DNA of 64,000 bases from an uncultured Planctomycetaceae bacterium (GTDB taxonomy: Bacteria; Planctomycetota; Planctomycetia; Planctomycetales; Planctomycetaceae): NCBI GenBank assembly GCA_963813715.1, contig CAWFAK010000010.1:1-64000 (forward strand), read 5' to 3'. Position 1 is the stretch's first letter; every line of letters starts with the position of its first letter. A program made the translations under genes and the position numbers. This document shows positions 8,906 to 61,046 of this stretch, piece after piece. The notes under the pieces are model-generated. The model searched no databases. It was not told the DNA's origin and was given only the letters and a program-made list of their open reading frames with translations.

Positions 8906-8942
8906 CCGCGCCAGAATTCCCCGGCCCGAATTCGCTGGGGAA

Positions 8943-9093: not shown

Positions 9094-9138
9094 TTATGCT
9101 GTTGCCGCCCTTACGGAAATTTTGAAAGAGTCTTAGCC

Positions 9139-9387: not shown

Positions 9388-9466
9388 GCCTACCGTGACG
9401 AATTGCCCCGCCCCTCATCAACTTGTGAATCCCCCGGCGCCGGCCTCCGGCCAGAATCGTTGAGCC

Positions 9467-30157: not shown

Positions 30158-30207
30158 GATGCGAAGTCAAAGTGGTTTTGCCGAACGGCGTGCGATCGGT
30201 GGCGAGT

Positions 30208-35660: not shown

Positions 35661-36383
35661 TCAGCCGCGGTCCGGCCCGTCGAGCGACGCTCCCTGCAAC
35701 GGCCGCGCGTACGGCGGGTGCCCGTATTGGGCTCGCGCCGGCGCTTCGAGAATGTTGGCCTGCACCAGGGACACGTAAGTGAGCACCATCAATAGCGAAT
35801 AGGTAATGAGATTGGGGATCGCGCTCTTGCCGACAAACTTCACCGCGCTCCCGGCAAATTTGTTTAATCGCACGTGCACTCCGCTCCATTCGACCGAATA
35901 GATTTCGTCCAGCACCAGATGCGAGAGAAAACCGAGGCAAACTCCGCCGGACATCAACAGCCGGGTGCCGAGCATGCTTGACGTGAAGGCGAGAAAGGCG
36001 ATTTCGCCCGCGATGATCATGGCGGGAATGCTGTGGAACATTCCCCGATGAACCGAAACTCGGTTTAGCAAGCCAGCCCCGCCATAGCGAATCACGACAT
36101 AGACGATGACCGACAGCAGCGTGGCCGTTTCGTGGTTGCCGTGGCTCCATTCGAGCAGATGGGGCATCATCGCAAACGGCGCGAACGCGGCGAGCAGACT
36201 GAACACTTCACGGACCGGGCGGCCGCTGTCGGAGTCGAGGTCCGGCAGCATTCCCGAAAACCAAGTCAGCGTGCCGGCAAGCGCCGCCTGCACGGGACTG
36301 AAACCGCCCAGAACATATCCCGCCGCGCCATATCCGAAACCCAGCGCACCGCTGACGGTGATGTGTGTCTTGTACCCGGCCAT
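35661..36383 (-). CDS. Membrane metal-dependent hydrolase (YdjM/DUF2227-like)
   Basis: KTH; LPDLDS; HRGMFHS; SHLVLD. Confidence 0.85.
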   Translation of the reverse strand: MAGYKTHITVSGALGFGYGAAGYVLGGFSPVQAALAGTLTWFSGMLPDLDSDSGRPVREVFSLLAAFAPFAMMPHLLEWSHGNHETATLLSVIVYVVIRYGGAGLLNRVSVHRGMFHSIPAMIIAGEIAFLAFTSSMLGTRLLMSGGVCLGFLSHLVLDEIYSVEWSGVHVRLNKFAGSAVKFVGKSAIPNLITYSLLMVLTYVSLVQANILEAPARAQYGHPPYARPLQGASLDGPDRG

Positions 36384-36532
36384 GGATTCTTCCTTGAATC
36401 GGTGACCATTCCGCGCTCGACACGGTGAACGTGCCGGCGGGAAAGCCGGGAATTACTAGCATATTCTCCGGAATCTGGACATTCCGGCTTCTCGTGTCAC
36501 AGGCCGCCCGGCAGCAAGTTTTCCGGCCCCGC

Positions 36533-37729
36533 CTAGGACCTGCCAAATAGATCCAGCGGCGGAAATCGCCCGCTGAGCGCCGGCGCTGCCGGGAGCCGTA
36601 ACCAGCTTTCCAGCACGGCCTGATAGACCTGCCGAAAATCGAGCGTGGCCACCAGGTCGACGCCTTTCAACTTCGACAGGCTGGGAGCCGTTCCATGCAG
36701 CCCCGCCTTGACCTTCGGACCGGCCAGCAGGACAGGAGCGGCCGTGCCGTGATCGGTCCCCTCCGAGGCGTTTTCGTCAGCCCGTCGGCCGAATTCGCTG
36801 AACGTCATCACCACCACGCGATCGTCCAGCTTCGCCTGCTTCAGTTCGTTCAGGAAGAAGCGGAGCCCGTCCGACAGTTCGCGCAAGAGTCGCTCGTGCG
36901 TCTCCCGCTGATAGACGTGCGTGTCGTAACCCGTCTGCACGGCGTAGTAGACCCTCGCTCCGAAATCGCTCTGGATCAAGCGCGAGATCGAGCGCCAAAC
37001 GCTTGGGCAGTTCGCCGTAAGGCAAAGTGGCGGAGTCGGGCCGCGGCTTGGCGGCCTGTTGCAGCCGGTCGGCCGTGGCGACGGCGTCGACCTCGCTTCG
37101 CCGCACGAAAGCCAGGAGCGATTCCTCCGCTGCGCCGGAGACTGCCGGTTTCGATTTGTCGGCGAGCACCATGTCATCGAGATTCGACAGGGTGGCTGCG
37201 ATGGATTTGCGTCCGCGAAGCGTGACGGGGAGCGCTTCCGGCCCAACGAGCACCGAAGAGGGGCCCGCCGGCCTTGGGTGCGCGGCCTTCGTCGAGGGCC
37301 CTACCGATCCAACCGATACCGTTATGCTCGGTCGGGTCGAAGCGGGCCGTCTCCCAGATCGAACGGCTCACGTCGTGCGACTTGTTCGGATTCGGGTAGC
37401 CAACACCCTGCACGATCGCCAGCCGCCCCTCGTGAAACAGGTCTTGGGCGTCACGCATCACGGGATTGAGTCCCACCGCGTCGTTCAGCCGACGGACGCG
37501 ACTCTTCTCGACCGCCAGCTTGGGACGCAGCCGCTTGTAATTGTCGTCGGCGTAGGGGACGACGGTGTTCAGACCGTCGTTGCCGCCGTCGAGTTGGATC
37601 ACCACGAGGATCCGATCGTCGAGTGACGGTGCCCGCCGCGCGGGCCGTCTGCGCCAGGAAGGCAGGCACCGTCGGAGCCAACGAGATCAACGTGGCCTCT
37701 TTGACAAAATCGCGCCGAGTGAGCCGCAT
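36533..37729 (-). CDS. DUF1501 protein with Tat signal; about three frameshifts
   Basis: MRLTRRDFVK; VIQLDGGNDGLNTVVP; GYDTH; FSEFGRR..GTDHG. Confidence 0.9.
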
Positions 37730-37739
37730 AACGCTCTCC

Positions 37740-39144
37740 TTATCCAATTTGGGCTTCGGGGGAGGACAGCAAAATGGCGGCCGCTTGCCGCGCGCTCTCG
37801 GCCGTGAGCACCGAGCCGGTGCCGACCGACTGCCTGTAGCGATTTCTGCACGGCCGCGGGGGGTTCAATTCCGAGGAGCGAGATGCGACAGGAACCGGAT
37901 CCCCGGCCCCGCCTCACGTCCGCCTACCGTTCGTTCGACCAACTCGAGCACGCGGGCCGTCGCGGCGGGATAGCGGACCGCGCCATTCAGCAAGCGCCGC
38001 GGCGAAGTTGATCCTCGCGACGAGAGCCCGCGAGTTGAGCCAGCTCCGCCCGCCCGGCCAGCCGAACACGTTCGGCGGATAGAATAGGTCCTGTCCCATC
38101 CGCGCGATCCACTCGGCCAGAAAGCAGCGTGCTGGGGGGCGGCTCGAATTGTTCGAGCGCCCGCACTGCGCCGATCGTGAACTCGGGCGGAGTGACGATC
38201 CGCGAGCGAAGATTTGCCGCGGAGAAAAATACCTGCGACCGCAGAATCCGCTCAACGCCCCAGCCAATGTCGAGTTGATGCTCGCGCAGGCCTTTTGCCA
38301 GATCCTGCACGAGCTCCGTCGTGAGCAGTCCCTCACCCAAAAATGTTTCGCAGAGCCGTTTCGCCAGCCGCACCGAAGTCGTCGGCTGCTCCAGCAGGAG
38401 CGCGACGAACTGGTCGCCGTTAAAGCGGGCTTTGCGGCCCAGGATCGTCTTTTCGCCATCGTCGTGGTGCTGCGAAAAGTCGTGAAACCCGTCCGGCTTG
38501 TACGACCAGCCGGTAAGCGCGCGAGCGGCGTCCTTGACGTCGGCCTCGGAGAAATTGCCGACGCCCATCGTGAAGAGCTCCATTGCTTCGCGGGCCAGGT
38601 TTTCGTTCGGATGCTCCTTGCGATTGGCCGGCGCGTCGAGCCAGTCGAGCGTCGCCGGCTCTTTGATCACGTGACGGAGCAGGTCGCCGAAGGGCGCGCG
38701 GGCAAACTGTCGCAAGACTTCGTTCTGCCGCCGCATGGCCGCCAGGTCGTTGACCTTGAGGTTGCTGGTGGCGAAGTGGTTGTGCCACAAGAGCGTGAGC
38801 CGCTCGCCCAAAGCGTCGGGCGAGAAGAGCATGCGAAATACCCACCAGGCCTTGAGCCGATCTGCCGACGCCGTCGACGCGGCCGCGTCGGCCAGCGCCG
38901 CGGAAACCGCCTCGAAGTCTTTCACGATGCCGTCGATCCGCGACTTGCCCTGCAGGACACGGGTGACGCTGGCCTCCGGCCCGTCGCGCAAGTCGCGCTC
39001 GATCTCGGCCCACGTTGCGGCAAACCCCGCGCGGCGATGCAGGTGCACGACGCGGGCGAGATCCCAGGGCACCCCAGTATCGGAAGCGTACGCGACCCAG
39101 GGATCCGGAACGTGATTCGGCTTTATCGCTGGTGCAGAGAACAT
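37740..39144 (-). CDS. DUF1800 protein; frameshifts in the 3' third
   Basis: HLHRRAGF; LWHNHFATS; PNENLAREAMELFTMG; PPNVFGWPGG; ends LSSPEAQIG. Confidence 0.9.
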
Positions 39145-39322
39145 ATTCGTCCGGGCGATTGCTCACGCCGTTCAAAAATTGACTTCGACCCAATATGAAC
39201 CGTGTGTCCAGGCTCGACTTCCGATCAATCGATCGCCTTTCGGTGCGGCTCTGCTACTCGATCGACCCCGCTTCAGTTTGAAGTCCCCCACGTCGATCTC
39301 GAACGGGCTGTTCGTTCGCAAC

Positions 39323-42300
39323 TTACCGTGACGGTTTGACGCGTAAGACCCCCAGTTGTTTGACCTCGCCCGGCCCGGCAGTGACGTCCGTAAAGATCTG
39401 TCCGAAGATTGACCTGCTCATCTTTCCGAACCCTTCCTGAGGAATTCGCACATCGGCGGAGTACTTCAACCCGGGAATGATGCCGGGAAGCTCGAAGCGG
39501 CCATCCTGGTCGGTCAGGACGTGCCGTCCGTTGAACTCCGTCAGGATCACACCCTGCTCTCGATCATGCGCAGCTTCGCCAGCGGGCGGAGGGTACCGCC
39601 TCCCGCGGCGACTGATGACGGCATTTTTGAGAGGCTGCCCGTCGTCGTCGATGAGCTGCCCGACAATTCTCGCCCCCGGATGAAGGGTGATTTCCAGTTT
39701 TTCCGGAGGTTCGCCGGACAGCCGATAAACGCCCACGAGGTTCCTCGCCGGATGATAAAACATCAGCGTGCGAGTTTCCGTGGGGAAGTAACCCGCGAGC
39801 GTGAAGGTTTCCGCCTCGTGAAACCTCCAGGCGCCATTGGACCGTGAGGCCCCCACTGGTCCGCTCACCGTAGAAAAGAAGTAATAGCCGCTGAGCGGTT
39901 GACTCTCCGGAGTCAAGACGCGGCCGCTCACGCTGACTCCGGACCGCAGGGTCAGCTTGACGGACAGCACGTCGGGCTGCGGCTCGAGATCGATGGGCAC
40001 GGTGAGGTGCGCGTTTGATGTGAAAGTCAAATACGGAGACTGGCGGAACTCATCCGCGGGTGCCGCTCGCAAACCGTCGACATGGTCGGAAAACACGCCG
40101 CAGGGGGTAGTCATCAAAAGGGCCGCCCGTCACCTGGAAAAGCAGCACTCCCTTGCCGGGCAGCACGGGGATCTCGAACCCGCCTTCGTGGTCCGTTCTG
40201 TAGCGACCCCGACTGTACCAATTGATCTGGAGGTGATCCGGGTTCGTCCACGATGCCAGATACTCCAAGTTGCCCATGACCGGCTTGCCTGTCCGCGAGT
40301 CGGTGACCTGGCCACGGACAAGAATTCCCGCCGTGAGCTGCACGTTGGACGTGAGCGGCTGGGAGCCCGCGGTCGTCGTCACATCAAAATCTCGCTGCAG
40401 ATGTCGCGTCCCAAGCGGCGGAACGGCGATGAGCTTGCTTTTGCCCAGCGGCAGGCCCTCGAGACGGTAGCGCCCCTCAGAGTCAGTCAGCGTTTGCAGG
40501 TAGTCGGAGGCCAGACTGGAGGAAGGCCGCAGACCCGCATGCGGGTCCGTCGCAGTGTAACCGGTCTTCACGACGCAATCGGCGAGCGGCCGCCCCGTTT
40601 TGCGGTCGGTGATGCGACCTTCGACTGGAATCGAGGGCCCCAGCAGGCCCGTGAACTCGTTCGGATAGAAAGACTCGGATTGAAGACTGGCGGCAGACGG
40701 CCGGTCGAACGCCAGCTTGATCGGCTCCCCTCGGCGAGACAGGACGTGCAGCAGCCGCATTTCCACGTTCGGTGCGCTCACGAGAATGTCGGCGATTCGC
40801 TCGCGGCCAATCCCCCTGAGCGTGAACCGGCCGTCCGCGCCGGTCCGGACCACGGGCACAATGGCAGAGTTTGCGGTGTCTATTCGGCGTAGGCTCCGGC
40901 CAGCCGTATTCTGGTCGGCGCCGCGCTGCTTCGTGGCTGCGACCCAGGCATCCAGAGTGCCGTCCGTTCCGCTGTGAACGGAGAGCGTCCGCACGATTGC
41001 GTCGGCAATCGGTTGACCTTCGATGTTCACCAGGCGACCACGAACCGGCACATCATCGGGGACCAGTTTGAGGACCGCCGGTTTAGCGGCAGTCTGCGTC
41101 TTGAGCCGACGCCGCTGCTCCTCGGTCAATTCAGCCATCAGTCGGCCGCTCGTCTCGAATTGGCCCGAGGAGTCGAATGCGAAGCCAAGGCCGTCCTTCG
41201 TGGCGACGATCGTCGCATAGCGCCAGGCCGGAATCCCGCTCGGAACGGCGTCGGCGAACTCGCTTTTGCGGCGCGTGAACTGGAACTGTCCGTGTGCGTC
41301 CGTTACGGCCAACGTCGCCGCTTGACGCTCCGGAGGACCCTCTCGCCAGTATTGCAACATCAGCTGCGCACCGGCGACCGGCAGTCCGACGTCATCGAGG
41401 ACTTTTCCCTCATAGGAAAACGCGACATCAGCCACGACCGGCGTCTTAGGCGCGGAGGTCGGGGCTTGCGCGTCGGAAGAACTGACAGCGTCGCTTCCGT
41501 CCCGCTTGATCTTGATCTCGCCCAGATCGATCGTCTTTCCCGGTGCGAAAGAGACTTTCTCGGCGACGGTCACGAAGTCGAGTTTGGGATCCAAGGCGCG
41601 AATCTTGTAGCTGTCGCAGCCCGCCGCCAGGTTTTCAATCGCGAAGTGTCCGTCGGCATCGGTCATGGGACCGGAGGTATACAGACTGAACCATGCGTGG
41701 CCGTACCGCATAGCCTCGGCGAACACCTGCACGTTCTTGAGAGGGCTTCCTTCCTCGTCCAGGAGACGACCGCGCACGGTCGCGCAGGGCTCGAGTTTGA
41801 CTGTCAATGTCTGCGAGGCTTTCTCGTCGTACTCGAAGGTGAAGACCTTGGCGATTTTTCGTTGCCATTGGGTGATCTGGTAGGTCCGTGATTCCTTCGG
41901 AGCCAGGCCCGCGAGCTCAAAGGTGGCATCGCGTCGCCCCCAGGTCACGGCAAGCGCGAGTTCCAACTGGAGAAGGTAGCCATCCTCCACCGGCTTGCCT
42001 GCACCATCGACAAACGCGATCCGTAACTTTCCGCCTGGATCGAGCGCCAGGTCGCACGCCGCCGACTCGGTCCCCGGCGTCGGATTGATCTCCTTGAGCG
42101 CGTTCTCGAAGGATCCGAAGGCAGGTCCCAGCGTTTTTGGGAAACGGCCATTTTTCTCCATCCCGGGAATCTCCGAGGCTCCCACGCCCGTGAGATACAG
42201 CCCGCCCGCTGCTCTCACGCCCACGATGGCGCGCCAGGGCAATCCCACGATGCGATAGGTTCCGTCCGGCGACGTGACCCGATGGGACGCGTCCTTGACG

Positions 42301-43800
42301 CGCTCGATGGTCCGCCACTCTTCCACATTCACGAACGGATTCGACCCATACGGGAAATAATGGACGACCGCACTAACGGGTTTGCCGGTCACCTTGTCGG
42401 TCACGCGGCCGGTGATCCACAGCCCGCGCCTGAGTTTGATGTCTAGCGTGATCGGATCAAGCCCCGCAGTCTGCGGGATATCGACTTCTTTTCCAAAATA
42501 CGGCTGGTCGAGGTTTGGCGCCACCACGAGCCGGTCGTGTTTCCAATCCTGATCGACGGGCGAGGTTTCTTTGGGCATGCCGATCAGTCGGAACTTCCCT
42601 TCCGCGTCAGTCTGGCGCAGATGAATTTATGCTGGCTCAATTCGACACGGACCCCTGGGAGCGGCTTCCCGCTGGCCGCATCGCGGACGGTGCCGATAAT
42701 CGGCTTGGTGAGAGCAGCCTGATATGTAAAGTCTCCGCCAAAAATCGGCGTCGGCCGGTTATCACCGTCGATCGCACGGTCCGCTGCACTGGGTGTGATC
42801 TGTCGAGTCACCACTTCGATTCTCGCCGTGGCAATCGTCTCTCCGCTGATTTGCAGGTCCACCACTCGTTCGGGCCCGACTCCCCGTACGACAAAGCGGC
42901 CATCCCGGTCGCTCACAATGTCTATGGACGTAGCTTCCTCGTAACCCGGGAGTTGTGATCCGAGACGGGCGTTACTGTCCCCTTTCTTCATCGCGTCCAC
43001 CCAGGCGCAACATCCTGACCTTCTCGCGGCACGCCTTGCGCCACCACGCGCACATGAACTCGGCTCAATGGCCTCCCTTCCAGGTCGACCACGCGGCCGT
43101 GAATGAGCGATTCGGGGATGAGCCGCAGCACAACCGGCGAATTCGTTTCCTTCCCGGGAACAAAGGCGGGTGCGCGCGCCCACTCGACGCCAAAGCCGTC
43201 CGTCCGCGCAGCGAGCCCAAACAATCCCGTGCCGATCTCGTCGTACCAATAGGGAGGAATCCAAATCTCGAATTCGCCGTTTGCCGCGGCCTTTGTGGTC
43301 GCCAGCGGCTTCCAACTCACCCGATTGGACCAATACCGTCGCAGCGCGAGGATCTCGGCCCCCGCAGCCGGCCGCCCATCGGGCAGCAACACAGTGCCGA
43401 GAATCTGCTGCGGTCCGTTTTCATTTTTCGCGGCGTTTGGCGGGGTCCTGTCCGATGCGGCTGAAACTTGCTTCGGCGCCGAAGCGCGCTCAGGCGCGCT
43501 CTCCGCCCGCGTGAGTTGTGTTGATGCGGGACGGCCGGCCTGGGTGTCGGCTGCGACCGGCAACGCTACAGCCGGTGAGATCTCGCCGCCGTCAGTTTTG
43601 GAAACGGGCGCGGGAGGAGTCGCCCCTTGCTGCGCGAAGCCGATGCCCGCGACGGCCGCAAGCGTGACGACGCACGCCCCGAGGATCCAGCGTCTGCCCA
43701 CCCTGGGCGCGATGCGGGCTCCCGCCAGCACGTGCTGCAGCCGACGTTTGAGCGAGTCGCCGCGATCACCGACGATCGGGAATAGTCCGGGCGTGTTCAT
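39323..43800 (-). CDS. Membrane-anchored protein (~1490 aa) with two carboxypeptidase-regulatory-like repeat modules; frameshifted
   Basis: ORFs 42988-43800, 42584-43333, 40050-42578 and 39323-40117 join collinearly; modules begin ~43405 and ~41415. Confidence 0.75.
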
Positions 43801-43801
43801 C

Positions 43802-46800
43802 TCACTTGGCGTCCTTCGCGGTGCCCGCGGCCAGTTCCTTGGTTCGTTTTTCCGTACCGCGGCGGTCGGACTTCCCAGCGTCGCCCGTTGCCCGATTGGG
43901 GCCCGACGGCGTTTCGACGGACGCCGTTGTCGCTTTGGCTGCGGCGGGCGGCTTCGTGCGTTTCACCGCCCCGCGATGGACTTTGGGAAACCCGCGATCC
44001 ATTCGCCCGCGTTCGATCGTGATGGTGCCCAGATCGATCTGATCTCCCGGAGCGACTGTCAATTTGTCGGCGACTTGAGCGAGAGACGATAGATGTGCGT
44101 CCAGAATGAATGGCCCTCCCGCTGGAAGCTCAAGTCGCAAGTGTCCGTCTGCGTCGGTGATCGCAGTCGGATTCCGGACGAACGAAAAACATTCGATCTT
44201 GACGTTCGACAGGGGGGCTCCGTCTTCGGACAGAAGCCGGCCCGTCACAACGGCCGGCGGTTCCAGCACGATCGTTCGTTGGGCTTCACCGGGTTGCGGC
44301 GTGAAGTCGAGCAGTTTCGTGAGCCCGCTGGCGCGATGTCGCAGCAGGACCGTCCTTTTGTCGCCCGGATAGGTTCCGTAAAGCGTTGCAGAATCGCTCT
44401 CGGTAAACGAGCGCGGCGGTAACATCCGCGGATCGAGGACCAGCCCGACGGCTTCGACCCCCGAAAGCGGCTTGCCGGACGCGTCCGTGAACTTCAGCAC
44501 GACGTTCTGCCCCGGCTCAACCGGCAAGTCGACGTTCACCTCGGCGCAAGCGGGGCAACGTCGATCTCGCGCAGGGAGTGGAACATGCCAGGCTCGATCG
44601 GCGACAAGGTCGGCGAATTGATTCTCTTTCTTTTTGCGTCGACTAGTTCTTTGATCTCAGCCCATCCCAGGTTGAAGCGGTAAGTCCCTTGCGTGCATTG
44701 CAGGCCGACCACGCCGCGACCCGGGATGACGGGGACCCGAAAGCGGCCGTCCGGGCCGAAAACGCCGGCGCTGGAATTCCTCGAGAAGTCGGGTTGACCG
44801 GCGAAATACTTCGCGGCGAACTCGTTCGATCGGAACGGCGTGTAAAGAACCGAGCCGGAGACCGGTTTGCCGGTTGACCGATCGTAGGCGCGGCCCACGG
44901 CCCAGATCGCGCGCTTCAGCTTGATGTCGAGCCGAATCGGCTCCAGCGAGACGGAGGCGGGAATCGTCGCCTCGTTAGCAGACAGGTAGGGCAAATCTGG
45001 AATCAGGATCCGACACAGGTTGATTCGCCCAGTGTCGAGCCCTTCGAGGCGAAAGTGCCCCTTGGGGTCGGAGGTCGCCGACACGAACATGTTGCCCCCC
45101 ACCAGGGTCGAGTCACCCCGCTTCACGCCATAGGGACGGATCCCGACGCCCGGAATGGGCTGGCCCGTCTCTTCATCCGTGACGAAGCCTTCGACGAGGA
45201 CGCTCGGCGACGCGACGTGCTCGAATTGAGAGCCAAGAGTCTCGTGAAATCTAAATGGGATCGGCTTGATCGGCCTCGTCACCACGCTGGCGACGAATGT
45301 GGCCATTCGTGGACCCGAGATTTTCAGATAGACGTGTCGATCGCGTCCGATTCCCTGGATCTCGAATCGCCCGTCGGCATTTGTTTTCTGCGCCGGAATC
45401 AGCGCCTCCGAGACCGATGCAACCGCCTTGACACGGAAGACAGCCTCTTCGCGGCCCCCTCTGTTTTCATCGAGCGAACGATTGGGCAAGAACCAATGGA
45501 TATACACGGGCTTGTCCTTCGCGGAGGCGATAAACTGATCGACCCAGGCCGCGGTCGAGTCGTAGACGATGACGACCTCGACACGGACATCGCGCAACGG
45601 TCGCCCTTCTAAATCGATGATGTGGCCGCGAATCGGCTCGTCATCGACCAGGTTCATGACAATCGCGTCGGTCTTTTCCGCCGGAAGGACTGGATGCAAC
45701 GCGAGGCCATAGCCGGCCAGCGTGGCCCACAGATTGACGCTGTCCCGGCGATCCGTCATCGGACCAACATCGACGCTGCCCCGAAATTCACCCTTCGCAT
45801 CCGCGGACAGCGTCGTCAGCACTGTGAACTTTTCTGTAGCCGCCGGGTACGGCTGACCGACGGCCTTAATCACTCGCACGGTCGCGCCGACCGCCGGCTG
45901 ACCGTTGGGCAACAGCACGCGGCCGCGGAGTTCACGCGTCGTCATCGCGGAAGGCGCGGGTTTCTTTTCGGTTGCCGCTGATGCCAGATGCACTTCCGGG
46001 CGAGGCGCCTGCACGGTTGACGCGTTTGCGACGCCGGGAGATTTGCTGCGTTTCAGCGATCCCCTCGTGATCCTTCTGATTCGTTGCTGCCGGGCGTCGA
46101 GTTCGATCGTGACGTCGCCGAAATCGATTTGCTCTCCCGCGGCAACCGTCAGGTTTTTCTCAAGTTGTTTGAGGGCGCCCGTGACGACAGACACGTAACG
46201 CCCGGCGGGGATCTCGCTGCGGAGACGTCCTTGGGCGTCGGAGGACGCCGCCCGCAAGCCTTCCGGCAGGTTGTAGGCGGGCGTGCAGGTGAGGCTCCAA
46301 TTCGCGAGCGGCGTTCCCTCCGGAGTGAGGAAGTGCGCGGTGATCACGGCCGGAGCCTCGAGAACGATCGTCCGCTCGGTCTCCCCCTCCTTTGGCGTAA
46401 AGCGGAACAGCTTTGTGAGACCGCTGGCCCGGTGCTTGAGCCAGACCGTTCGCGTCTCGCCGGGGAACGTGGCATAGAGCGTCGCCGAGTCACTCTCAAC
46501 AAAGGACCACCATGGCCGAGCCGAGTAACCCTTGCCTGACTGATAACGCACATACCGCAACCCGTACGCTTCCACGCCGGCCAGCGGTTTGCCGGCCGGA
46601 TCGGCGAACTTGAGAACGACGTTCTGCCCCGGGTCGGCGGCCAGATCGGCATGAGCCTCTTCGGCATCCGGCGGGACGTTGATTTCCCGCACCACCTGAT
46701 AAGGCCCATACGGCGCGGACGTTAATCTCTCGAAGTCGGCGATCGCCTCCCGGCCAAGCTGGAGCCGGTAGTCCCCCTCGTCGCAGTAGAGAGTCAGCAC

Positions 46801-49800
46801 GCCACGTCCCGGGACGACGAGGAGCCGGAAACGTCCGTCCGCTTCGACATTTCCGCCCGTGCCTTGAATCACGTGATACTTTCGCGCGACTTCATTGGAG
46901 CGAAACGGTGTGTACTGCACCCAACCGGAGACAGGCTTGCCCGTCACCCGATCGGACGCGCGGCCGACGGCCCAAATGCCGCGCTTGAGCTTGACGTCGC
47001 ACCGAATCGGCCGAAGCGCCACGGCCGCGGGAACCTCAAAGCCGGCCCCGGTTTCCATTGGCTTGACGTACCAGGGGTGCAGATAAGGCAAATCGTGCGG
47101 TTCGACGCCGCAGACGTTGGGCTGCTGGGTGTTGAGTCCCTCGAGCAGGTAGTGGCCGCGAGCATCGGTTGTCGCGGAGGCTGACAGGCCGAGCTCGACC
47201 CTCCACCTGCCCCTGTCGGACCTGATATAGGGAAAGACGGTGGCGCCGGCGATCGGCTTGCCGCTCTCTTCGTCGGTGATGAATCCTTCGACGGGCACGC
47301 TCGGCGAAACGACGCGAGTAAACTCGGAACCGTCAACTTCCCACTGGGGCAGGGGAATCGACTTGATCGGCCGCGTCAGAACGCTGGCGAAAATCGTGGC
47401 CGTTCGCGAGGCGGAAATTCTGAGGGCGATAAGCCGATCGCGCCCCAGGCCCCGCATCTCGAACCGCCCGTCGGAATCCGTTTTGACCGTCGGAACGAGC
47501 GTTTCGGAAACGCGTTGAGGCGAGTCGACGTGCAAATACGGTCCGCCCGGTGCGGACCGTCCTGCCGAATCGCCTTCGTCGTCGAGGAATGCGTTGATGG
47601 GCCGCGGCAGCTTGGAAATCGCGGCCAGCCATTGGTCGATCGAGTCGGTCGTCGTGTCGAAATAGCGAATGATTTCGACGCGGGCCTCGCGAACGGGCCG
47701 CCCCTCGAGGTCGACAATCCGCCCTCGGATCGGCTCCTCTTGGGCCAGCTTCAACACGATCGGCTGCGCGTCGGAGATCGACGGGAGCGGCCGCACCACG
47801 AGGCCATAGCCTGGCAACGCGGCCCAGACGCTAAGTGGACGACGATCCTTGAAGCCGGCGGCATCGATGTGGCCCTCGAAATCTCCGTTCGAATTCGCAG
47901 TGCGTTTCGCCAGCACTCGGAGTTCAACTTGCCCCGCGAGCACGTCGGCTCGAATCACGCGGACGGTCGCCCCGACGGCCGGCTGACCATTGGGCAACAA
48001 CACGCGGCCGCGCAGTTGCGCGTCGGTGACGTGTCAGTCCGAAGTGATTCTGTCTTCGCGATTTGCCCGGAGCGCGGAAGCGGGTGCCGACGCGATCGGC
48101 GGCTTCACTGCCGTCGCCTTTGTGCGTTTCGGTGGGCCGAACGTGGCTTTGACATCACGCGGACGCTTGCCGGTGCTTTCGAGCGTGATATCGCCGAGTT
48201 CGATTTGCTCTCCCGCCGCGACGGTCAGTTTGGGTAGTCGACAACGACCGGCAAAGAGGCCAATCGAGCCGCCTGCCGGCAGGTCGCGACGAAATCGTCC
48301 CTGGGCGTCGCTCATGACGGGGGGAAAGGCTTCCTCGAAACCCTCGCCGAAATCGCATCGAATTTCGATTCCGGAAAGAGGTTTCCCTTCGGCGCTGACC
48401 AGGCGGCCGGTAACGATGGCCGGCGGCTCCAGGACGAGCGGGCGCGGGCCTCCCCGGCCTGCGGAGAGAATTGCATCAGTTTTGTCAAACCCGTCGCGCG
48501 ATGGCGGAGCCAGATGACGCGGTTTTCGCCCGGATAACCTGCATAGAGAGTCGTCGAATCGCCTTCGACAAACGACTGGCCGCGCTTCCGGCGCCGAACG
48601 GGGCCCGGCAAACCTCAGTCCGTTTGTCTCGACCCCGGCCAGCGGCTTGCCGGCGGCATCAGTGAACTTGAGGACGACATTCTCCCCCGGATCGACTGGC
48701 AGATCGATGCTGGCTTCGCGCGCCCGGCGCGAGATCGATCTCGCGCAACGAGTGGTACATTTCTCCAAAGATGAATCGGTAGAGAGGGGAAGCCAGAGCC
48801 GCGTTCCGATCGGTCAACGACTTGATTTGCGCCGGCCGAAGTCCAGGCGGTAGTCGTCCGAGTCGCAGCGCATGTAGATGATGCCGTGTCCGGGATAGAC
48901 CAGGGCGCGAATATGCCCCTCGGGGTCGGCTTCTCCGCATTCGAGCAGTTCGTCCCAGAACCTGGGGATGTTTCGCAGCCACCTCACGGGCGGGTTTGCT
49001 CGTTTGAAACGGCGTGTAAAAGATCTTGCCCGAGACCGGCTTGCCGGTTGTCCGATCGTAGGCTCGACCAGTAGCCCAGATCCCGCGTGTGAGCTTCAGG
49101 TCCTTGCGGATCGGATCGAGCGACTTGACGGGACCAACCCGCAGCCCCTGCATCAGGGAGAAGTAAGGCTGGCCGGGCACACGAACATTGCAGTTCAGCC
49201 CATAGGCCGGATCGATCCCCTCGAAGCGATAGTGTCCGCGGGCATCGGTCGTTCTCATCCCGTATAGAGCTAGGATTGATCGCAGGCGCACACCCGGAAT
49301 CGGTTTGCCGGTCTCCTCGTCCGTGATATCTCCCTCGATTGTCACGCCCGGCGATAGGGCACGTTCGAATTGCGAGCCGGAGATCTCCATGGATTGCTTA
49401 CGGATGGGCTGGATGGGCCGCGTCAGCAGGAACGCGAACGTCGTTGCCACGCGCGGACCGGAGATTCTGAGAGCGATAAAGTGATCGCGCCCGATACCTT
49501 GTATCTCGAAGCGGCCGTCGGCGTTGGATTTCGCCTTCGCCAGCAACGACGCGGGTAACCACGCTTTCGACGTGGAAGGGATCAAGGACTTATTTTGGAA
49601 TTCCGCATCCTTGCTTTGAATCGACGCGATCCACGGGTCGATTGCGTCCGCCTTCGTGTCGAAGTATCGACGACTTCGATGTCGACGTCCCGAGCGGGTC
49701 GCCCCTCCAGGTCCATCAAGCGACCCCGGATCGGCTCCTCGGCGACAAGATGCAGCACAATTGGCGTCTCTTTGTCGGGCAAATACGCAGCATGGGCCAG

Positions 49801-52800
49801 TCCATAGTTTGGCAGCGTGGCCCACAAGTCGACCGCGCATTCTTGCTCCGTGAGCAAGCCGACGTCAACCTTGCCCCCGAATTCACCCCTCACGTCGGTC
49901 GAGAACGTCGTCAAGAACGTGATCGTGTCGGGCGGCAGGACTGAGTACTCGAGGCCGACGCTCTTGCACACTCGCACGCTCGCACCGATCGCGGGTAGCC
50001 CGTTTGGCAACAGCACGCGGCCACGGATTTCGCGGATCGTTGCGGGCTTCTGCGAGTTTTCCTTTGGTCGCTGGGACGTTGCGGAAGCAGGCCGGATGTT
50101 GACGCTTGAATTGCGGCGGGCGGCTTTGTGCGTTTCTCCGGACCGCGATGGATCTTGGGTCGCAAAAGTCCTTTTTGGTCTCGATCGATCGCGATATCCC
50201 CCAGTTCGACGCGTTCACTCGCGACAACCGACAGCTTTTCGGCAAAGAATGCATAGGGGAATGGATTCGCATAGAGTTCAAACGGTCCCCCGGCTGGCAG
50301 CTCGCCGCGAAAACGCCCCTCGGCATCGGTGCTCACAAACGGGAGCCGGTCGGCCGAGTTGGATTCGAACACGCACTCGATCCGCAGGTCCGACAGCGGG
50401 GTCCCCTCGGGGGTGACCAGCCGTCCAGTCACAACGGCCGGCGGTTCAAGGACGACTGTTCTCTCCGTTTCGCCCACTTTGGGCGTGAAATGAAGCAGCT
50501 TCGTGAGGCCGCTCGATCGATGCTTGATCCAGATTGTCCGCGTTTCGTCCGGCGAAGAGGCATACAAGGTTGCCGAGTTACCTTCGATGGACGATCGACT
50601 TCGATTCATGCGGCTGTGCGGATCGAGTCGCAGCCCATACGTCTCCAAACCGGCGAGCGGGCTGCCGCCTGCATCGGTGAACTTGAGGACGACGTTCTGG
50701 CCCGGATCGACCGGCAGATCGACGTGAATTTCATGCGTGTCCGGAGTGACATTGACTTGCGCACCGCATGGAATGGTTCCGACAAGAGACGTTCGTATGT
50801 CGGCCCGCGCATCGATTGCGCCATTTCGGAGCCCGCCAGCTCCTTAATCTCACTCCGACCGAGGTTGGGCCGATAATTGCCCTCCGAGCACTTCAAGCAG
50901 ACGACTCCCCGGCCGGGTATGACCGGAATCTTGAACCGTCCCTGGTCGTCGACGAACCCAAACGGGTAATTCGCCAAGAAGTCCGTGGGTGCGTTTCGAT
51001 ACCGCTCGTAATTTCGCGCGGCTGGATTCGATCGGAACGGCGTGTAATAGACCGATCCAGGGACGGGCTTTCCATTCGTCCGGTCGAAAGCCCGACCAAT
51101 GGCCCATACGCCGCGTCTCAGCTTGATATCGTGTCGGATCGGTTTAAGAGACTCGGAAACGGGGATCGATCCATTTTCGACGGGAGGGTAGGGCAAATCG
51201 GGGACGACGATCTTGTAATAGTTGGTGGTGCCCGTTTCGAGCCCTTGCAGGCGATAGTTTCCTTGAGCGTCGCTCGTTCGCGACAACAGGGCTGCGATGT
51301 GTGGATCGTTCAACAGGACGCCATTTTCGCGCTCGACGGCGGTGGGAATGATGCGAGCGCCGGGAACGGGCTTGCCGGTCTCTTCGTCGGCGACAACCCC
51401 TTCAACCGCAACACTCGGCGGCGCCACGCGATCGAATTGCGAGCCGAAAATCTCGTGATATTTGAAAGGAATCGGCCGGAGGGGCCGCGTCAAAATGCCC
51501 GCTTCGATCGTCGTGACTCGCGGCCCGCTGATTGCCAAATCGACGAGTCGATCCCGTCCAACCCCCTTGATCTCGAAGCGCCCTTCGGCATTTGTCTTCA
51601 CCGCGGGCATCAGGACATCGGAGACGTTTTCAGCTGACTTGATGCGTAAAATCGGTTCACGTCGATCAGGCTTCGGCTCCTCGCGAGTGAAGTTGAAAAA
51701 TGTCTGGCCGGGCGTGACTCGACGCGCTGAAGCGAGCCATTGTTCGACCCAGGGAGTGGTCGTGTCGAAGTACCGCACGATTTCGACGCGAGCATCGCGA
51801 ACGGGCTGCCCTTGCAAATCGAGGATGCGTCCGCGAATCGGCTCTTCATCGACGAGGCTGATCTCGATCGGGCCACTCTTTTCCGCCGGGGCAAGGTGAT
51901 ACGGCGTCAGACCATAACCGGGAAGCGTGGCCCACAGGTTGACCTGGACTCCGGGTTCCTTCATCGAACCGATGTTGACGCTTCCCCGAAACTCTCCCTG
52001 TGAATCCGTGGAGAGCGCAGCGAGCACTCCGAACTCCTCAGCTCCGCCTTCGTAACGGGGATACTCAAATTTGATCGCGCGCACGGTCGCCCCGACGGCT
52101 GGCTGGCCATTCGGCAACAGAACCCGGCCACGCACGGCGACGACGCCGGGGGGAAGCGCGGCGCAGGATTCTGCGCGGGAGTCGGTTGTGGCGACGGGAT
52201 TGCTGGTGGTGAAGCCGTTGGCGTCGCTGCGGGCGCGGGGGAAATCGGGGGTTTCGTTTCTTGAGCTGTTTCGAGTTGAGGCGCGGGTTCCGGAGACGGA
52301 GCCGCGGCGCGTTTGCCTTGCTGGGCGAAACCGACGCCGGCAATGGCGGCTAGCGCGAGCAGCGTGGAGGCGAGCAACCAGTGGCGGCCGACTTTGGGGG
52401 TGATCCGCACGCCAGAAAGGACGTGTTCCAGCCGCCGCTTGAGCGACTCGCGGCTGCTGACGGCGGCCAAGGCGTGGGCCGGCGCGCCTTGTGGGACGAG
52501 TTGTAGCAACGAGTCGGCGTAGTCGGTCGCCTCGCCTCCGGTCGACAGCACCCAATCGTCGCAGGCTTGCTCGCGGAGGTAGGCGAGCCGGCGACGGCTG
52601 AGCCAGGTCAGCGGTTGCCAGGGCAGGGCGATGACCACGATTTCAGCCCACAAGGCGGTCCAGTGATCCCGGCGGATCGCGTGCGCCAGCTCGTGACAAA
52701 AGACGCTCCGCCAGAGGATCGGCCCCGCATCGGTCGCTGAAGTCGGCAGCAACACGACGGGCCGTGCGCTCCAGCACCAGATCATCGGGCAGCGAATGTG

Positions 52801-53508
52801 CGGCGTGGGCGCAGGGACGGTGCGCCTCGCAAGCCCAGGCGCTCGCGTCGCCTCGCCAAGAGCGGCGACCAATTGCGGATCGGTCTCCTCGCGGGCAGTC
52901 CGCACAATTCGCGTCCCTGCCAGGAGAGAAATCGCCAGCCGGACCAACAACAGCAACGACGCGATCGACCACGCAGCGGCGAGCGCGGCGGTCACGCGCG
53001 AGGTCCAAGTGAACGGCGCGGGCGGCGGTTCGAGGGCAGTCTCGGTCGTCTCCGCGTCTTGCGGTTGCTCGCGTGCCGTAGGGTCGCTCGTGGCAACTTC
53101 CGGTTCGATCGAGCTGGTCGAGCGGCCCGGCATCGAGTCGAGTTCTGATTGTGCAAACTCATCCGGGGAATCGGCCCGCTCTCGAGGGAGCTGATCGTCC
53201 GGATGGTGGACCTCGGCCGCGGGTGCCGGTAGCTCGGTGCCAGTCACGACAACAGGCGGCGGTTCGGGAGGCGCAGGCAAGAATCCCCATTGCATGCGAT
53301 GGACGATGACCGTGAGCAAAGGCGAGACGAAGGCCGCGCCCATCGCGAGCACGAGCAGCAGATGAGCCCGCCCCGCGCGGCGTCGCCACACGCGGGCCGC
53401 GAGCAGCCCCACAGCCAGCCACAGCGTCGATTGCCAAACCAACAGCCACGCGAAGTCGCTGGTCCCGCCGGACGTCGACGGGAGCGCACCCATCAGTCGG
53501 TCAATCAT
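43802..53508 (-). CDS. Giant BlaR1/MecR1-type M56 metallopeptidase (~3200 aa) with four ~690-aa repeat modules; multiple frameshifts
   Basis: TM helices; CHELAHAIRRD (HEXXH); REQACDD; LKRRLEHVL. Modules start with RGRVLLPNG(Q/L)PA at ~52135, ~50025, ~48012 and ~45927. Confidence 0.8.
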
Positions 53509-55120
53509 CGTTCAACTCCGCTCTTAGTCTTCGAGTGCACGGCGATATTCTGCGTGAGTTGTGTCGCCGTTTCTGGCACGTTCAATAGGGCAATCCCCTG
53601 GAACTGGGATTGCGGCATCGCGCTCGACCCGCCAATACCGGCAGCAATGACGAGGCTATCCTTGATTGGCCCCTTCATGTCGGCGCGGCCGTATCGGACG
53701 CCTTCGTGTTTAAAAAAGGCATCGGCGTCGACGCGTGCCGGCTCGAAGTCGTCACGCGCCGACATGCGAACAACGACGGCTCCCGGACCAGGCAAAATGC
53801 CTAAAGAGAACGTTCCGTCAGTGTTGGTGGGCGCCTGGCTAAATGGACCAATGCCAAACGCTGTGCTGGACATTCCCTTTTCGATGTGAGTACTAGGATA
53901 GAGCGGCCAATACATGACCTCGGCGGACACTGGTTTGCTGTTCGACCGGTCGATCACGCGGCCAGAGAGCGGAATCGCCCGATAGACGTGCAGTTGCACT
54001 TCAAGAGGCCCCAACCCCGGCGTATCGAGGGCCGTCAGCGATCCGTCGATGTAGGACGATTGATTGGGTAAGCTCGCGCCGAGCTGGTACTTGTCTTCTT
54101 TGGCGCAGCCCCGCAATTCGAAGCGGCCCGACACGTCGGTGGTTGTCTCCGAGAATCCGTCGAAATGGTTGACACGCACTCCCTCAATCGGCCGCCCGGT
54201 CTTGGCATCGGTCACGGTGCCGACAACGGGACGCGACGGACGCACATAGTGCGTAAACCGTGCGCCGTAGGTGGCCTTCGTGAAGCGGGGCGGCGTGCCG
54301 TTAAGCATCCCATCGAATGGATCAGTCAATACGTGGATCGTGGTGTCCGCGATCGCGTCGCCGGAAATCACAAGTACGGCGCGGCGGTGCCGCCCGATGC
54401 CGCTGAACCGGAAGCCTCCCCGCTCGTTGGTCAATGCAGCCGGCGCTTCGCGGCGTAGGGTGACCCTGCTCCCGAACATGAGCCATGAGGTGAATCGGTA
54501 GTTCGAGGCGCGCATGTCGTTTGTTTTCAGCACCCTGAGATACGGTTGCGGATCGTCGTTGGCAAACGTCTCAATGGCGACGATCCGGACGGCGGCCCCC
54601 ACAACCGGGCGTCCTTCCAAGTTCACAATGCGGCCTTCGATGGGCAGATCATCGGTGGCAAGCGTTAGTCTGAGTTCCGTGGACAGCTTCAACGTCTCCG
54701 GGTCGATCCAGGCCGGACCGAATCCCGACTTTACGGCTTTGATCCGCAGCGAAGCTGCACCAAATCGGGCGTCAGAGCCGGGACCGAAAAATCAAAGTCG
54801 CCATCGCTGACGGTTGTTGCCTTCAAATCGATGAGATAGCCGGGACCCGATCGTATGAAAAACACTTGTGCGCCCGGGGCCGGCTTGCCATCAGGCTGCA
54901 CAACTCGACCAGAAAACCGGCGGGTTTCGTCAGCTTCTCCGGAACGATCCTGTTTGCGTTGAGCAGATTTGTCCGCCGCAGAGCGTGCCGCGGATTGGTC
55001 TCTGGCTGGTCGCTGTTGAGCCGCGGCAGTATCCCCAAAACTCACCGCCAGCCAGACCGTCAATCGCGAGACAATTGCCCAGGCGAACCAAGCCGGCAGA
55101 GCTGACCGAGCTCTATTCAT
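53505..55120 (-). CDS. Exported protein with one shorter carboxypeptidase-regulatory-like module; frameshifted ~54780
   Basis: Signal-like N-terminus; FSGRVVQPDGKPAPGAQV; PIEGRIVNLEGRPV; overlaps blaI by 8 nt and the M56 gene by 4 nt. Confidence 0.75.
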
Positions 55121-55505
55121 GGGAAAGTTCCTTCCGCCGCTTGTCGATCATCTTCCGCAGCTCGGCCAGGTCGGCGGCACTCAGCTCCTGGTCATCGAGC
55201 AGGTGCTGAAACATGGCAATCGGGTCGCCGCCGCAAACGCGGTCGATGAATTGCCGCAGCGAGCTGCGTCCGGCTTCGGCGCGGGTGACCACCGGGCGGT
55301 AGACGTAGGCGCGGCCCTCTTCTCGATGCGTGAGCCAGCCTGCCTTGTCGAGCTTTTGCATGACGGAGAGCACCGTCGTGTAGGCGAGCTTGCGACGGGC
55401 GAGCTTCGTTTTCACCTGGTTGACGCTCGCCTCGCCGAGCGTCCAGACGATCTCCATCACGGTTTTCTGCAAGTCGCCCAAATCGTCGAGCGAACGACGG
55501 GACAT
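55113..55505 (-). CDS. blaI: BlaI/MecI/CopY-family transcriptional repressor
   Basis: LGDLQKTVMEIVW; LAYTTVLSVMQKLDKAGWL; EGRAYVY; DLAELRKMI. Confidence 0.93.
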   Translation of the reverse strand: MSRRSLDDLGDLQKTVMEIVWTLGEASVNQVKTKLARRKLAYTTVLSVMQKLDKAGWLTHREEGRAYVYRPVVTRAEAGRSSLRQFIDRVCGGDPIAMFQHLLDDQELSAADLAELRKMIDKRRKELSHE

Positions 55506-55557
55506 CCGGTTCCTTTCGGGTGAAACTTCGCGGGAGGCTGTGAAACTATCGCCACGA

Positions 55558-55601
55558 GTACTACGACAGATAGTAGTACCGCCGGGCCACCACACCGTCA
55601 A
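55558..55601 (-). promoter_or_regulatory. sigma70-like promoter with overlapping BlaI-type operator
   Basis: Minus strand TTGACG(55601-55596)-N17-TACTAC(55578-55573); inverted repeat GTACTAC-N8-GTAGTAC at 55558-55579. Confidence 0.75.
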
Positions 55602-55814
55602 CAAAAAAGTGGCCGAAATGTGACGCCGTAGGGAAACGGGCGATCACTGCTTTAGCCGGCCTTAAGCGACGCGCTGCCCGCGCCAACACAGCGTGTCGGC
55701 CAAGCTGGGAAAGGCGTTCCGTCCGAATTCCCGAGCTCCGTGATGCAAGCGGCGCCGGCGATGATTAACCGCAGCAGGATCGCCGGCAGACGCACGAGTG
55801 CGCCGCGCGCGAAG

Positions 55815-56267
55815 TCAGCTCGCCTTCGGCGCCTGGCCGATGTCGATGGCGACTTCTTGCGTGCCCGTTTCGACTGATTGACGCAAGGGCGTTTTGTCGG
55901 GTCGGGCGTATTTGAGGGGCAGTCGGCTGTTAGGGACGTCCTTGCCCTCGGGCAGATCGTCGTCGTCTTTGCCTTTCCCCGAGGGGGCCTGTGCGGCATC
56001 GATCACGATCACGCGGTGTTGGCCGACGGCCGCCCCCACCGAGCCATTGGTGCAGCGGAGCTGAAAATGTCCTTCCGCGTCGGTCAGGCCCGTCGATTGC
56101 GGCAGTTTGCGATCCTCGGGAATGAAGGTGACCATTGCATCGGCGAGGGGTGCCCCGTCGACTCGCACGGTCCCCTCGACCTGCCCCATTGGGACTTTGC
56201 GCGCGCAACCACAGAGCGCGAAGAGGCTCAGGCCGAGGACAATACGGATCGACAACGAACGCGGCAT
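55815..56267 (-). CDS. Lipoprotein with carboxypeptidase-regulatory-like domain (DUF1559 partner)
   Basis: Lipobox-like LCGC; VEGTVRVDGAPL; TDAEGHFQL; LPLKYA. Confidence 0.85.
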   Translation of the reverse strand: MPRSLSIRIVLGLSLFALCGCARKVPMGQVEGTVRVDGAPLADAMVTFIPEDRKLPQSTGLTDAEGHFQLRCTNGSVGAAVGQHRVIVIDAAQAPSGKGKDDDDLPEGKDVPNSRLPLKYARPDKTPLRQSVETGTQEVAIDIGQAPKAS

Positions 56268-56301
56268 GGCGCGAAGGACTCTTCCTGGGGAACCGGGCCG
56301 C

Positions 56302-57303: not shown

Positions 57304-57619
57304 GAAGGCCCTCTCACCGGTGCATTGATTCGCATCTTGAAGTCGCGCACGATACGAACGTGCCATCTTAGTGACAGGATGATAGCAAATCCAGGAATGG
57401 ACGCGATGTGAGGTAGAGCACAAACTGCTGAAGTTTTGCCAGTCCGACGAGCCGCCGGTTCAAGGGCCTGTCGAGCCTGTTCGGCGAACTTCAGAAAGTC
57501 CGCTTGCAACTGCGCTCCCCTTGTCAAAATCATCGGCTTTCAGTCAAAGTCATCGCACGCGCATTCTTGATCGGTAGTCATCAATCAGAGCTCGCCAACC
57601 CCGAGAATTGGAACATCCA

Positions 57620-59648: not shown

Positions 59649-59669
59649 CGCGCTGATCCCTCCACCATT

Positions 59670-60896: not shown

Positions 60897-61046
60897 GCGT
60901 GGTGCGTCGTCAGCGGCCCGGCCAGCGCGCGACCGAATCAGCCGAAATACCGGGTAAGCCGAAATGTTGAAGTGCAGACGCCTAACAGCCGCTCGATGGA
61001 AGAGTTGCCGGTCAGGGGCAACTCCGGTTTGCGAGCGGCCGAACCG

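Follow-up and report, generated by a model that had tools for sequence, protein, structure and literature searches.

Within the first 64 kb of contig C10 of genome G000, the 7.49-Mb, 18-contig assembly of an uncultured Planctomycetaceae bacterium (GCA_963813715.1, contig CAWFAK010000010.1; these 64,000 nucleotides are called the window below), a six-gene block on the minus strand runs from 55601 down to 36533, as delimited by Pfam matches and tables of open reading frames (ORFs). It comprises a gene for a BlaI-type repressor, a giant M56-protease gene that carries a tandem array of large modules, two genes for module-only proteins, and a DUF1800–DUF1501 gene pair. We consider it probable, at roughly 60%, that the block is a working, self-repressed BlaI/M56 signalling operon, that it represents a cassette family conserved in this family of planctomycetes, and that its apparent decay is an artefact of assembly. 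Its features are the following (aa, amino acids; nt, nucleotides; Tat, twin-arginine translocation).

55596–55601, minus strand: candidate -35 hexamer (TTGACG) of the blaI promoter, read from the sequence
55558–55579, strandless: candidate BlaI operator, an inverted repeat (GTACTAC-N8-GTAGTAC)
55113–55505, minus strand: blaI, 130 aa, intact, a winged-helix repressor of the BlaI/MecI/CopY family (PF03965, 1.9e-31)
53505–55120, minus strand: gene 2, an exported one-module protein with an N-terminal hydrophobic leader (CarboxypepD_reg, 1.4e-16)
52320–53508, minus strand: M56 protease domain of the giant gene (PF05569, 6.5e-19, within the piece 51961–53511)
43802–52319, minus strand: four tandem modules of about 660 aa fused to the M56 domain, from module matches, with K/P/A/T-rich linkers
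39323–43800, minus strand: gene 4, an anchored two-module protein, from ORFs and comparison with the related genome G009
39145–39322, minus strand: gap of 178 nt between gene 4 and DUF1800, of the same length in G009
37740–39144 (3′ end approximate), minus strand: DUF1800 (PF08811, 4.9e-78 at 37987–39162)
36533–37747, minus strand: DUF1501 (PF07394, 6.2e-21 at 36533–37300), with an RRDF Tat motif in the piece 37451–37864

A first-pass annotation of the window, made from the letters alone, had proposed this gene order, strand and set of families, and a Pfam check found every claimed family in place, with CarboxypepD_reg in every open piece from 39323 to 55147. The tight junctions that it described among the first four genes agree with the ORF coordinates: blaI and gene 2 overlap by 8 nt (55113–55120), gene 2 and the M56 gene by 4 nt (53505–53508), and a single nucleotide (43801) separates the stop of the M56 gene (43802–43804) from the ATG of gene 4 (43800). 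Module matches likewise recover the four modules of about 2.0–2.1 kb that it placed behind the M56 domain.

On sequence grounds, the architecture of a BlaI/M56 proteolytic switch that lacks a penicillin-binding domain is supported. The M56 peptidase had been described as having an intact HELAH motif, and alongside the PF05569 match this motif is indeed found, at residue 272. A hydropathy scan places membrane helices at residues 19–37, 51–69, 175–193 and 377–395, and both HELAH and a second motif, EQACD at residues 313–317, lie between helix 3 and helix 4; for each part of the protein we infer which side of the membrane it faces. When the G009 orthologue is aligned with BlaR1 of Staphylococcus aureus (8EXS), the HEXXH and E-x3-D columns are in register (E 0.004). 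Pfam reported no penicillin-binding or beta-lactamase family, PF00905 included, in any piece of the block or in the intact G009 protein, and the whole extension behind the M56 domain is covered by modules; the module array therefore does replace the canonical penicillin-binding domain, as had been claimed. The statement that no beta-lactamase lies in the window was also correct, since PF13354 has no match in the genome and none of the eight genome matches to PF00144 is on contig C10. Taken together, HELAH, EQACD, the four helices, the alignments with BlaR1 and MecI and the missing penicillin-binding domain support the architecture of the envelope-sensing proteolytic switch that had been proposed, in which sensing by the modules and cleavage of BlaI by M56 would be the putative steps.

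The repressor is 90% identical to its G009 orthologue. PF03965 covers its residues 14–126, the winged helix and the C-terminal dimerisation helix region are both present, and it aligns over its full length with MecI (1SD6, 1.7e-7), the best match being BlaI of Mycobacterium tuberculosis (2G9W, 6.3e-10). Upstream of the gene, a perfect 7-N8-7 palindrome lies 16 nt past the -35 hexamer and 52 nt ahead of the blaI ATG, where it overlaps the core promoter, which makes it a candidate BlaI operator at BlaI's own promoter. With 0 or 1 mismatch this palindrome is unique in the 7.49-Mb genome; sites with up to three mismatches stay at chance level (116 observed against about 160 expected). Its half-sites are conserved 5′ of blaI in G009, G003, G005, G004 and G008, and the position of the hexamer is occupied by TTGAC in the five genus relatives examined; TTGAC also precedes blaI in most of 11 loci from other genera. 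In those other genera blaI is preceded by TTGAC and a palindrome too, but one of different sequence, in two cases of the TTACA...TGTAA type. When eight of these palindromes were scanned along their own loci, seven recurred only at blaI, and the shortest (L044) had additional matches with 2–3 mismatches elsewhere in its locus.

No operator was found before DUF1800 in these eight cassettes, nor does G000 hold a second BlaI operator there, at up to one mismatch genome-wide. A second operator driving DUF1800 was accordingly rejected as a candidate, given that sites with at most one mismatch are absent genome-wide and those with up to three are at chance level. With the operator solely at blaI, control of DUF1800 and DUF1501 by BlaI would need read-through of the 178-nt gap. 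A simple scan of 36000–55990 returned 2 promoter-like and 18 terminator-like sites, both numbers at the level of shuffled sequence; it did not list the TTGACG hexamer of blaI and placed neither kind of site in the gap. Rfam gave no match at E≤0.1 over 35500–56500, gap included, and the fold of the gap is unremarkable (z-score -0.07). Contigs from an RNA library (X3) cover 27 of the 30 bins of the block as well as position 39265 in the gap, although such contigs cannot show transcription or a single transcript. The claim of a BlaI-controlled block of about 19 kb is supported at its promoter end, where the genome-unique palindrome, a candidate operator, overlaps the blaI promoter, and is left in doubt for its far end by the sole operator at blaI and the operator-less gap before DUF1800.

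A copy of the DUF1800–DUF1501 pair adjoins module genes in all seven other genomes of the genus that have a DUF1800 match. When the G009 DUF1800 was used as query against 121 family genomes, 16 loci outside the genus had a DUF1800 at least 48% identical, and 13 of these carry an M56-module gene immediately 5′ of it, in the same orientation and with no gene between. BlaI is present in 10 of these 13 linked loci, its place in the other three being beyond the contig end or the stretch examined. The three loci without the cassette are those at 48–49% identity; a linked M56 gene was found at none of five loci at 41–45% identity (one with too little flank to tell) and at none of 11 more distant DUF1800–DUF1501 loci. 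One of these 11, G026, was rejected as a cassette, as 13 kb separate its BlaI–M56 pair from the DUF pair and the genes in this interval lie partly on the opposite strand. We also built a maximum-likelihood tree of 38 DUF1800 proteins, after leaving out locus duplicates (L009, L011, L033 and L034) and those copies, among them the ones of the window and of G004, whose broken frames leave no single ORF. All 19 linked proteins and two unlinked ones (G273 and G199) fall in one clade with 100/100 support, and the tree needs two changes of the linkage label against 12.9 for shuffled labels, with none of 500 shuffles as low. The DUF1800 of the window is 84% identical to that of G009 over residues 1–341, and the three clean tblastn pieces of its DUF1501 are 83–86% identical. 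A test of synteny from blaI through DUF1501 had been proposed, and the linkage does hold beyond the genus; the comparison supports inheritance of DUF1800 and DUF1501 together with the switch in many genera, where they form a clade of their own.

The same linkage could arise if BlaI/M56 regulated only itself and the module proteins and the DUF pair were an independent two-gene unit, a neighbour since one ancestral insertion. We regard this as rather unlikely. In its favour, the operator is absent from the 178-nt gap and from before DUF1800 in the other cassettes scanned, the pair occurs alone in 16 other loci examined, and PMC5122149 describes it as a mobile operon of its own. DUF1800 has been lost in G002, G084 holds another BlaI–M56–module pair with different downstream genes, and few label changes among relatives can reflect shared descent alone. 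An independent unit accounts less well, however, for an adjacency that has outlasted the divergence of DUF1800 to about 50% identity across 11 or more other genera, a change from about one to five modules and a complete change of operator sequence. The strand and the lack of an intervening gene are, moreover, constant in all 13 linked loci outside the genus, and a duplication of the block within G009 kept the pair.

What the pair might do was approached through the G009 proteins. Its DUF1501 models as an enzyme of the alkaline phosphatase superfamily (predicted local distance difference test, pLDDT, 80.7; predicted template-modelling score, pTM, 0.83): choline sulfatase, PbgA/YejM, LtaS and alkaline phosphatase are matched at a Foldseek probability of 1.00 and E about 1e-5, with template-modelling (TM) scores of only 0.35–0.48 to 6FNY, 6VAT and 4UOO. 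The residues invariant in 28 sequences (D50, S116-H117, D267-T268-H269 and D324-H325) fit a metal site, as judged without superposition on a known active site. A twin-arginine leader is found in all 29 DUF1501 proteins examined, and the DUF1800 N-termini listed have no hydrophobic leader. DUF1800 and mature DUF1501 (G009 pair, L016 1019–3626) are predicted to form a heterodimer, with a complex score of 0.84 against 0.00 for the best of three controls. Among solved complexes 116 of 157 attain this mark, and among mismatched pairs 2 of 215; these counts apply only roughly, since our own alignments were used for the prediction. The runs share at least 84% of contacts, with a partner pLDDT of at least 82. 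A sequence search of both proteins against solved structures returned nothing usable, so that a score owed to a memorised structure is unlikely. A signal-less DUF1800 predicted to bind a DUF1501 with a Tat leader suggests joint Tat export; both proteins probably reach the envelope as a unit, where a phospho- or sulfo-ester would be their likely substrate. The function of the pair is given as unknown in PMC5122149, which presents DUF1800/DUF1501 as a co-transferred mobile operon with a Tat leader.

The array fused to the M56 domain amounts to about 2800 aa, and its modules were placed approximately by module matches as follows.

About 50112–52141, minus strand: module 1
48109–50034, minus strand: module 2
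45943–48033, minus strand: module 3
43940–45936, minus strand: module 4

Each module begins with an R-G-R-V-L-L-P-type strand and ends in a linker rich in K, P, A and T. Carboxypeptidase-regulatory-like folds had been suspected here, and PF13620 is found in every module. One module (664 aa, 46030–48021), modelled from a 50-row alignment, gave a mean pLDDT of 86.8 and a pTM of 0.83, and is predicted to be a compact body of about six beta-sandwiches of the seven-stranded, transthyretin-like kind, with one helical insert. Its single domains align with domain II of carboxypeptidase D (1QMU; VIA-align Z 11.5, root-mean-square deviation 1.6, 82 residues aligned), with 5AQ0 (Z 11.2) and with the N-terminal extension of SusC (9HFJ, Z 10.5), and CnaB domains are also among the matches.

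Modules also occur outside the protease. Gene 4 has one membrane helix (residues 38–56), and its N-terminus duplicates the region surrounding the last M56 helix, with 67% identity over 43612–43758. A gene of this type is intact on contig C168 of G009 (1438 aa, L015 5608–9924), where it overlaps the stop of a 1730-aa M56 protein, and gene 4 is therefore a real kind of gene and not a by-product of sequence errors. The final modules of gene 4 and of the 2559-aa M56 protein of G009 share 82% identity, from which it follows that modules move between M56-fused and anchor-only contexts. Related cassettes have M56 genes with 1 to about 5 modules, over a module span of about 2 kb to 10.7 kb; with the structural variants of soil strains described below, this supports the variable multi-module array that had been proposed.

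The block is, judged by its matches, not a one-off; it is a member of a large, database-annotated and unstudied family. A word-indexed search found 219 relatives of similar length to the module at E≤1e-5, and in an exhaustive one the number of representative clusters matched was 3529 at E≤1e-3, falling to 1979 at 1e-10 and to 506 at 1e-30, with the longest protein reaching 4828 aa. Among 120 listed relatives of similar length, a precomputed Pfam column assigns 68 to extracytoplasmic function (ECF) sigma factors (PF04542, PF08281 or PF04545), 18 to M56 and 34 to neither; among longer proteins, fusion to M56 dominates. The sigma-fused proteins are membrane-tethered, of about 950 aa, and come from Isosphaeraceae (Singulisphaera, Tundrisphaera), as in P0041 of Tundrisphaera, where the sigma factor is followed by hydrophobic stretches and then by the module. 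Two different kinds of membrane-spanning regulator gated by proteolysis thus have the module as their outer part, which is our main reason for reading it as an input domain. A phylum-wide module search at E≤1e-20 found it in 2 of 151 genomes (G000 and G084), a search that scored up to eight candidates per genome and is insensitive, so that it has little bearing on absence. A search for loci starting from 11 close module rows returned five, all from the source genus.

Modules of this make could also serve as structural or adhesive parts of the envelope (spacers, or binders of the cell wall or surface layer), with M56 mainly an anchor, BlaI setting the level and no signal sensed. Fold matches to pilins, adhesin stalks, surface-layer (S-layer) and macroglobulin-type sandwich arrays would suit such a role, as would the exported and anchored module-only paralogues in the operon and a copy number that varies between strains, like that of surface proteins. 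We consider this improbable, in view of the 86 of 120 listed relatives that carry M56 or ECF sigma domains, which are two different proteolysis-gated transducers, of the retained M56 catalytic motifs, and of a module model that is compact (pTM 0.83) and forms no beads-on-a-string stalk.

Part of the M56 gene was found, as near-identical DNA, in 20 soil or rhizosphere runs from 19 studies, the best of which holds 0.43 of the sampled words. Contigs from four independent runs of this kind were aligned to the block at 92% likeness, a cut-off at which some of the joints below may come from relatives or repeats. One contig of run X1 joins 53511 to 55126, which is the exact loss of gene 2 (71 letters on the shorter side) and brings blaI next to the M56 gene; gene 2 is likewise absent from G003 and G009 and present in G002, a presence/absence polymorphism. 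Other joints remove or duplicate module-sized stretches (48309 to 51762, and 51847 back to 50271), and two more (41576 to 45361 and 43553 to 47235) rest on short sides of 21–24 letters. Module 2 (about 47992–49923) is nearly uncovered in the four runs, which hold the rest of the block. The module array therefore seems to differ between near-identical strains.

As deposited, blaI is the sole gene of the block in a single open frame, and the five downstream genes are all broken. Gene 2 switches frame once (in 54731–54791), and the M56 gene six times on the minus strand, according to ORFs and tblastn pieces (near 52198–52294, 50759–50843, 50094–50214, 49666, 48659–48813 and 44536–44656), in addition to an in-frame TGA at 48034–48036. 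Gene 4 has three switches (42988–43042, 42584–42626 and 40050–40129), DUF1800 at least two breaks, one at about 38125 and others towards its 3′ end, with stops inside the match, and DUF1501 three switches (about 37630, 37261–37331 and 36989), its four tblastn pieces lying in three frames. This amounts to 15 or more breaks, or about 0.8–0.9 per kb. The density is the same in the rpoB/rpoC region of G000 (C9:452772–460787), where rpoB is in four pieces and rpoC in at least four, both genes being whole in G009. Contigs C4, C7, C15 and C17 also hold split orthologues of G009 genes, one uvrA-like gene is broken as well, and completeness is 82.6% despite a very contiguous assembly. Pseudogenisation confined to this locus was rejected, as frame breaks are genome-wide. 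So was a failure of polishing in a repeated block, because the genome has one copy of the block and DNA identity between its modules is no more than 64.6–75.8%.

In relatives, these genes are found in one frame. The intact G009 genes code for 130, 2559, 466 and 404 aa, and pieces of the block with a clean frame are 82–86% identical to their G009 orthologues. The G002 orthologue of gene 2 (L035 7058–8623), 83% identical, is in one frame, and P0121, a close relative of 2094 aa, has no stop at the position of the TGA and runs in a single frame across the break at 44.55 kb. Among the indels listed for the soil contigs (30 more exist), a base is missing at 38125 in three runs and at 40102 in three runs, a T is added at 44543 in one run (an RNA-library contig), a C is added at 39265, within the 178-nt gap, in all four, and a compensating pair at 52808/52838 is also present in all four. 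The positions 38125, 40102 and 44543 fall in break intervals that had been derived beforehand from ORFs. That the block is a decaying pseudogene locus in this strain, as 15 or more frame switches and a TGA within 19 kb, the TGA beyond the cover of the soil contigs, might suggest, is very hard to credit when the essential rpoB and rpoC are broken at equal density, clean pieces stay this close to intact orthologues, relatives keep the genes whole, and independent contigs show 1-nt indels at the break sites. On this evidence, the frame breaks of the block are indel errors of the assembly, and neither chance nor decay. With about 1 indel per kb in the G000 assembly, the broken frames seen here should not be taken for gene decay, and genes of this genome should be called pseudogenes only after checking.

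By analogy with BlaR1/BlaI, MecR1/MecI and sensor-less BlaIR-like pairs, an operon of this kind would be held off by a BlaI dimer on the palindrome. A periplasmic event acting on the module array would activate the cytoplasmic M56 protease, BlaI would be cut in its dimerisation helix, and the operon would be derepressed. Its output would be more of the switch together with the two module-only paralogues, as co-receptors or decoys, and, by read-through of the 178-nt gap, DUF1800 and DUF1501.

Several observations weigh against this reading. The alignment with BlaR1 is weak, and BlaI differs in its residues at the position aligned with the MecI cleavage site, even though the homologous helix region is present. 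For the whole module, Foldseek gave no match to a solved structure beyond the level of domains (TM at most 0.15), and no recognisable ligand site was found in it. The in-frame TGA at 48034–48036 is outside the cover of the soil contigs, which are nearly empty over the bins 47992–49923, the module-2 breaks included, and this strain may truly have a stop there. A gap without an operator makes independent transcription of DUF1800 possible, and this gap, 178 nt here, ranges from about 30 to 380 nt in other cassettes. G002 has no DUF1800 match and a 5′-truncated DUF1501 behind its M56 gene. The DUF1800 proteins of G273 (L051) and G199 (L052), a long-branched pair nested in the linked clade, have no M56 or DUF1501 gene detected nearby. 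In G084, a second BlaI–M56–one-module pair (L039, C1:1566000–1581999, 3508–10864) is followed by HlyD-type and FtsX-type genes, from which different cassettes of this kind may drive different outputs. Related genomes share ancestry, moreover, and the linked loci are not independent events.

Beyond the self-repressed operon, which we still favour with these points in mind, a wider proposal can be made, and we hold it only tentatively, as an unlikely one. The module would be a general periplasmic input domain of Planctomycetota, serving both M56–BlaI and tethered ECF sigma systems; the output here would be the DUF1800–DUF1501 heterodimer. What the array binds would be a polymeric phospho- or sulfo-ester, either the substrate or the product of this Tat-exported enzyme, and the specificity of sensing would depend on how many modules there are and which ones, a feature that differs even among strains from the same soils. 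If true, this would be the first regulatory and functional context for the orphan DUF1800/DUF1501 pair.

The operator half-site of BlaI/MecI systems is a TACA/TGTA box, whereas the half-site here is GTACTAC. In other respects BlaR1–BlaI and MecR1–MecI, from S. aureus and Bacillus licheniformis, resemble the block, with M56 HEXXH and E-x3-D motifs between helices 3 and 4, an adjacent PF03965 repressor and a palindromic operator, here a candidate one, at the repressor's own promoter; BlaR1 structures are available (8EXP–8EXT; PMC9834060). They differ in their penicillin-binding sensor, the place of which is taken here by four six-sandwich modules (about 2800 aa), and in their target, beta-lactamase or PBP2a there and DUF1800/DUF1501 downstream here. 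The present system thus fails two defining features of BlaR1, the penicillin-binding sensor and the resistance gene. The cassette is nearer to sensor-less BlaIR-like pairs, such as PvmSR of Pseudomonas aeruginosa and BlaIR of M. tuberculosis and Mycobacterium abscessus (10.64898/2026.08.03.742534), and to PetR/PetP of Synechocystis (10.1101/2020.07.31.226407), than to BlaR1–BlaI. All of these combine a BlaI-family repressor with an M56-type protease and exert control outside beta-lactam resistance; their proteases lack an extracytoplasmic domain, whereas here the outer part makes up most of the protein and is modular and strain-variable.

The same architecture occurs in annotated giants that join M56 to one or several copies of the module at 26–49% identity: Paludisphaera soli (2318 aa), Aquisphaera giovannonii (1617 aa), A. 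insulae (1614 aa), Botrimarina mediterranea (3224 aa) and many metagenome-assembled genomes. They are annotated as 'M56 family metallopeptidase' or 'Regulatory protein BlaR1', and our literature search found no study of them. The ECF sigma proteins of Isosphaeraceae ('sigma-70 family RNA polymerase sigma factor') have the same 660-aa module as the outer part of a single-pass protein and differ in having a cytoplasmic sigma factor instead of a protease with a separate repressor. The canonical DUF1800 (PF08811)–DUF1501 (PF07394) operon, as described in PMC5122149, has the same order, overlapping genes and a Tat leader, the difference being that the pair here belongs to a distinct clade tied to BlaI–M56–module genes. 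No published account of planctomycete BlaI/M56 systems or of this cassette was found in a search that left subscription journals mostly outside.

Some neighbouring genes of the window are recorded here as well. Directly upstream of the block, 55815–57423 (minus strand) codes for a DUF1559 protein that starts with a methylation motif (PF07596, PF07963) and for a small protein with one weak CarboxypepD_reg match. At 28043–31794 (minus strand), a polyphosphate kinase gene (704 aa) adjoins that of a Ppx/GppA phosphatase with an HD domain (528 aa), both intact, and at 58227–62870 (minus strand) an iron-containing alcohol dehydrogenase is encoded between two PQQ/BamB-like beta-propeller proteins.

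BlaI/BlaR1 is the standard example of signalling in which a receptor activates proteolysis, and almost all that is known of it concerns antibiotic sensing. The cassette is a real, widespread and unstudied variant of this switch, coupled to a different outer domain that is very large, modular and variable between strains. The use of the module by ECF sigma factors too suggests a common input domain, so far undescribed, in this phylum, where signalling has barely been studied. The conserved coupling also offers a testable handle on DUF1800/DUF1501, a pair that is widespread in bacteria.

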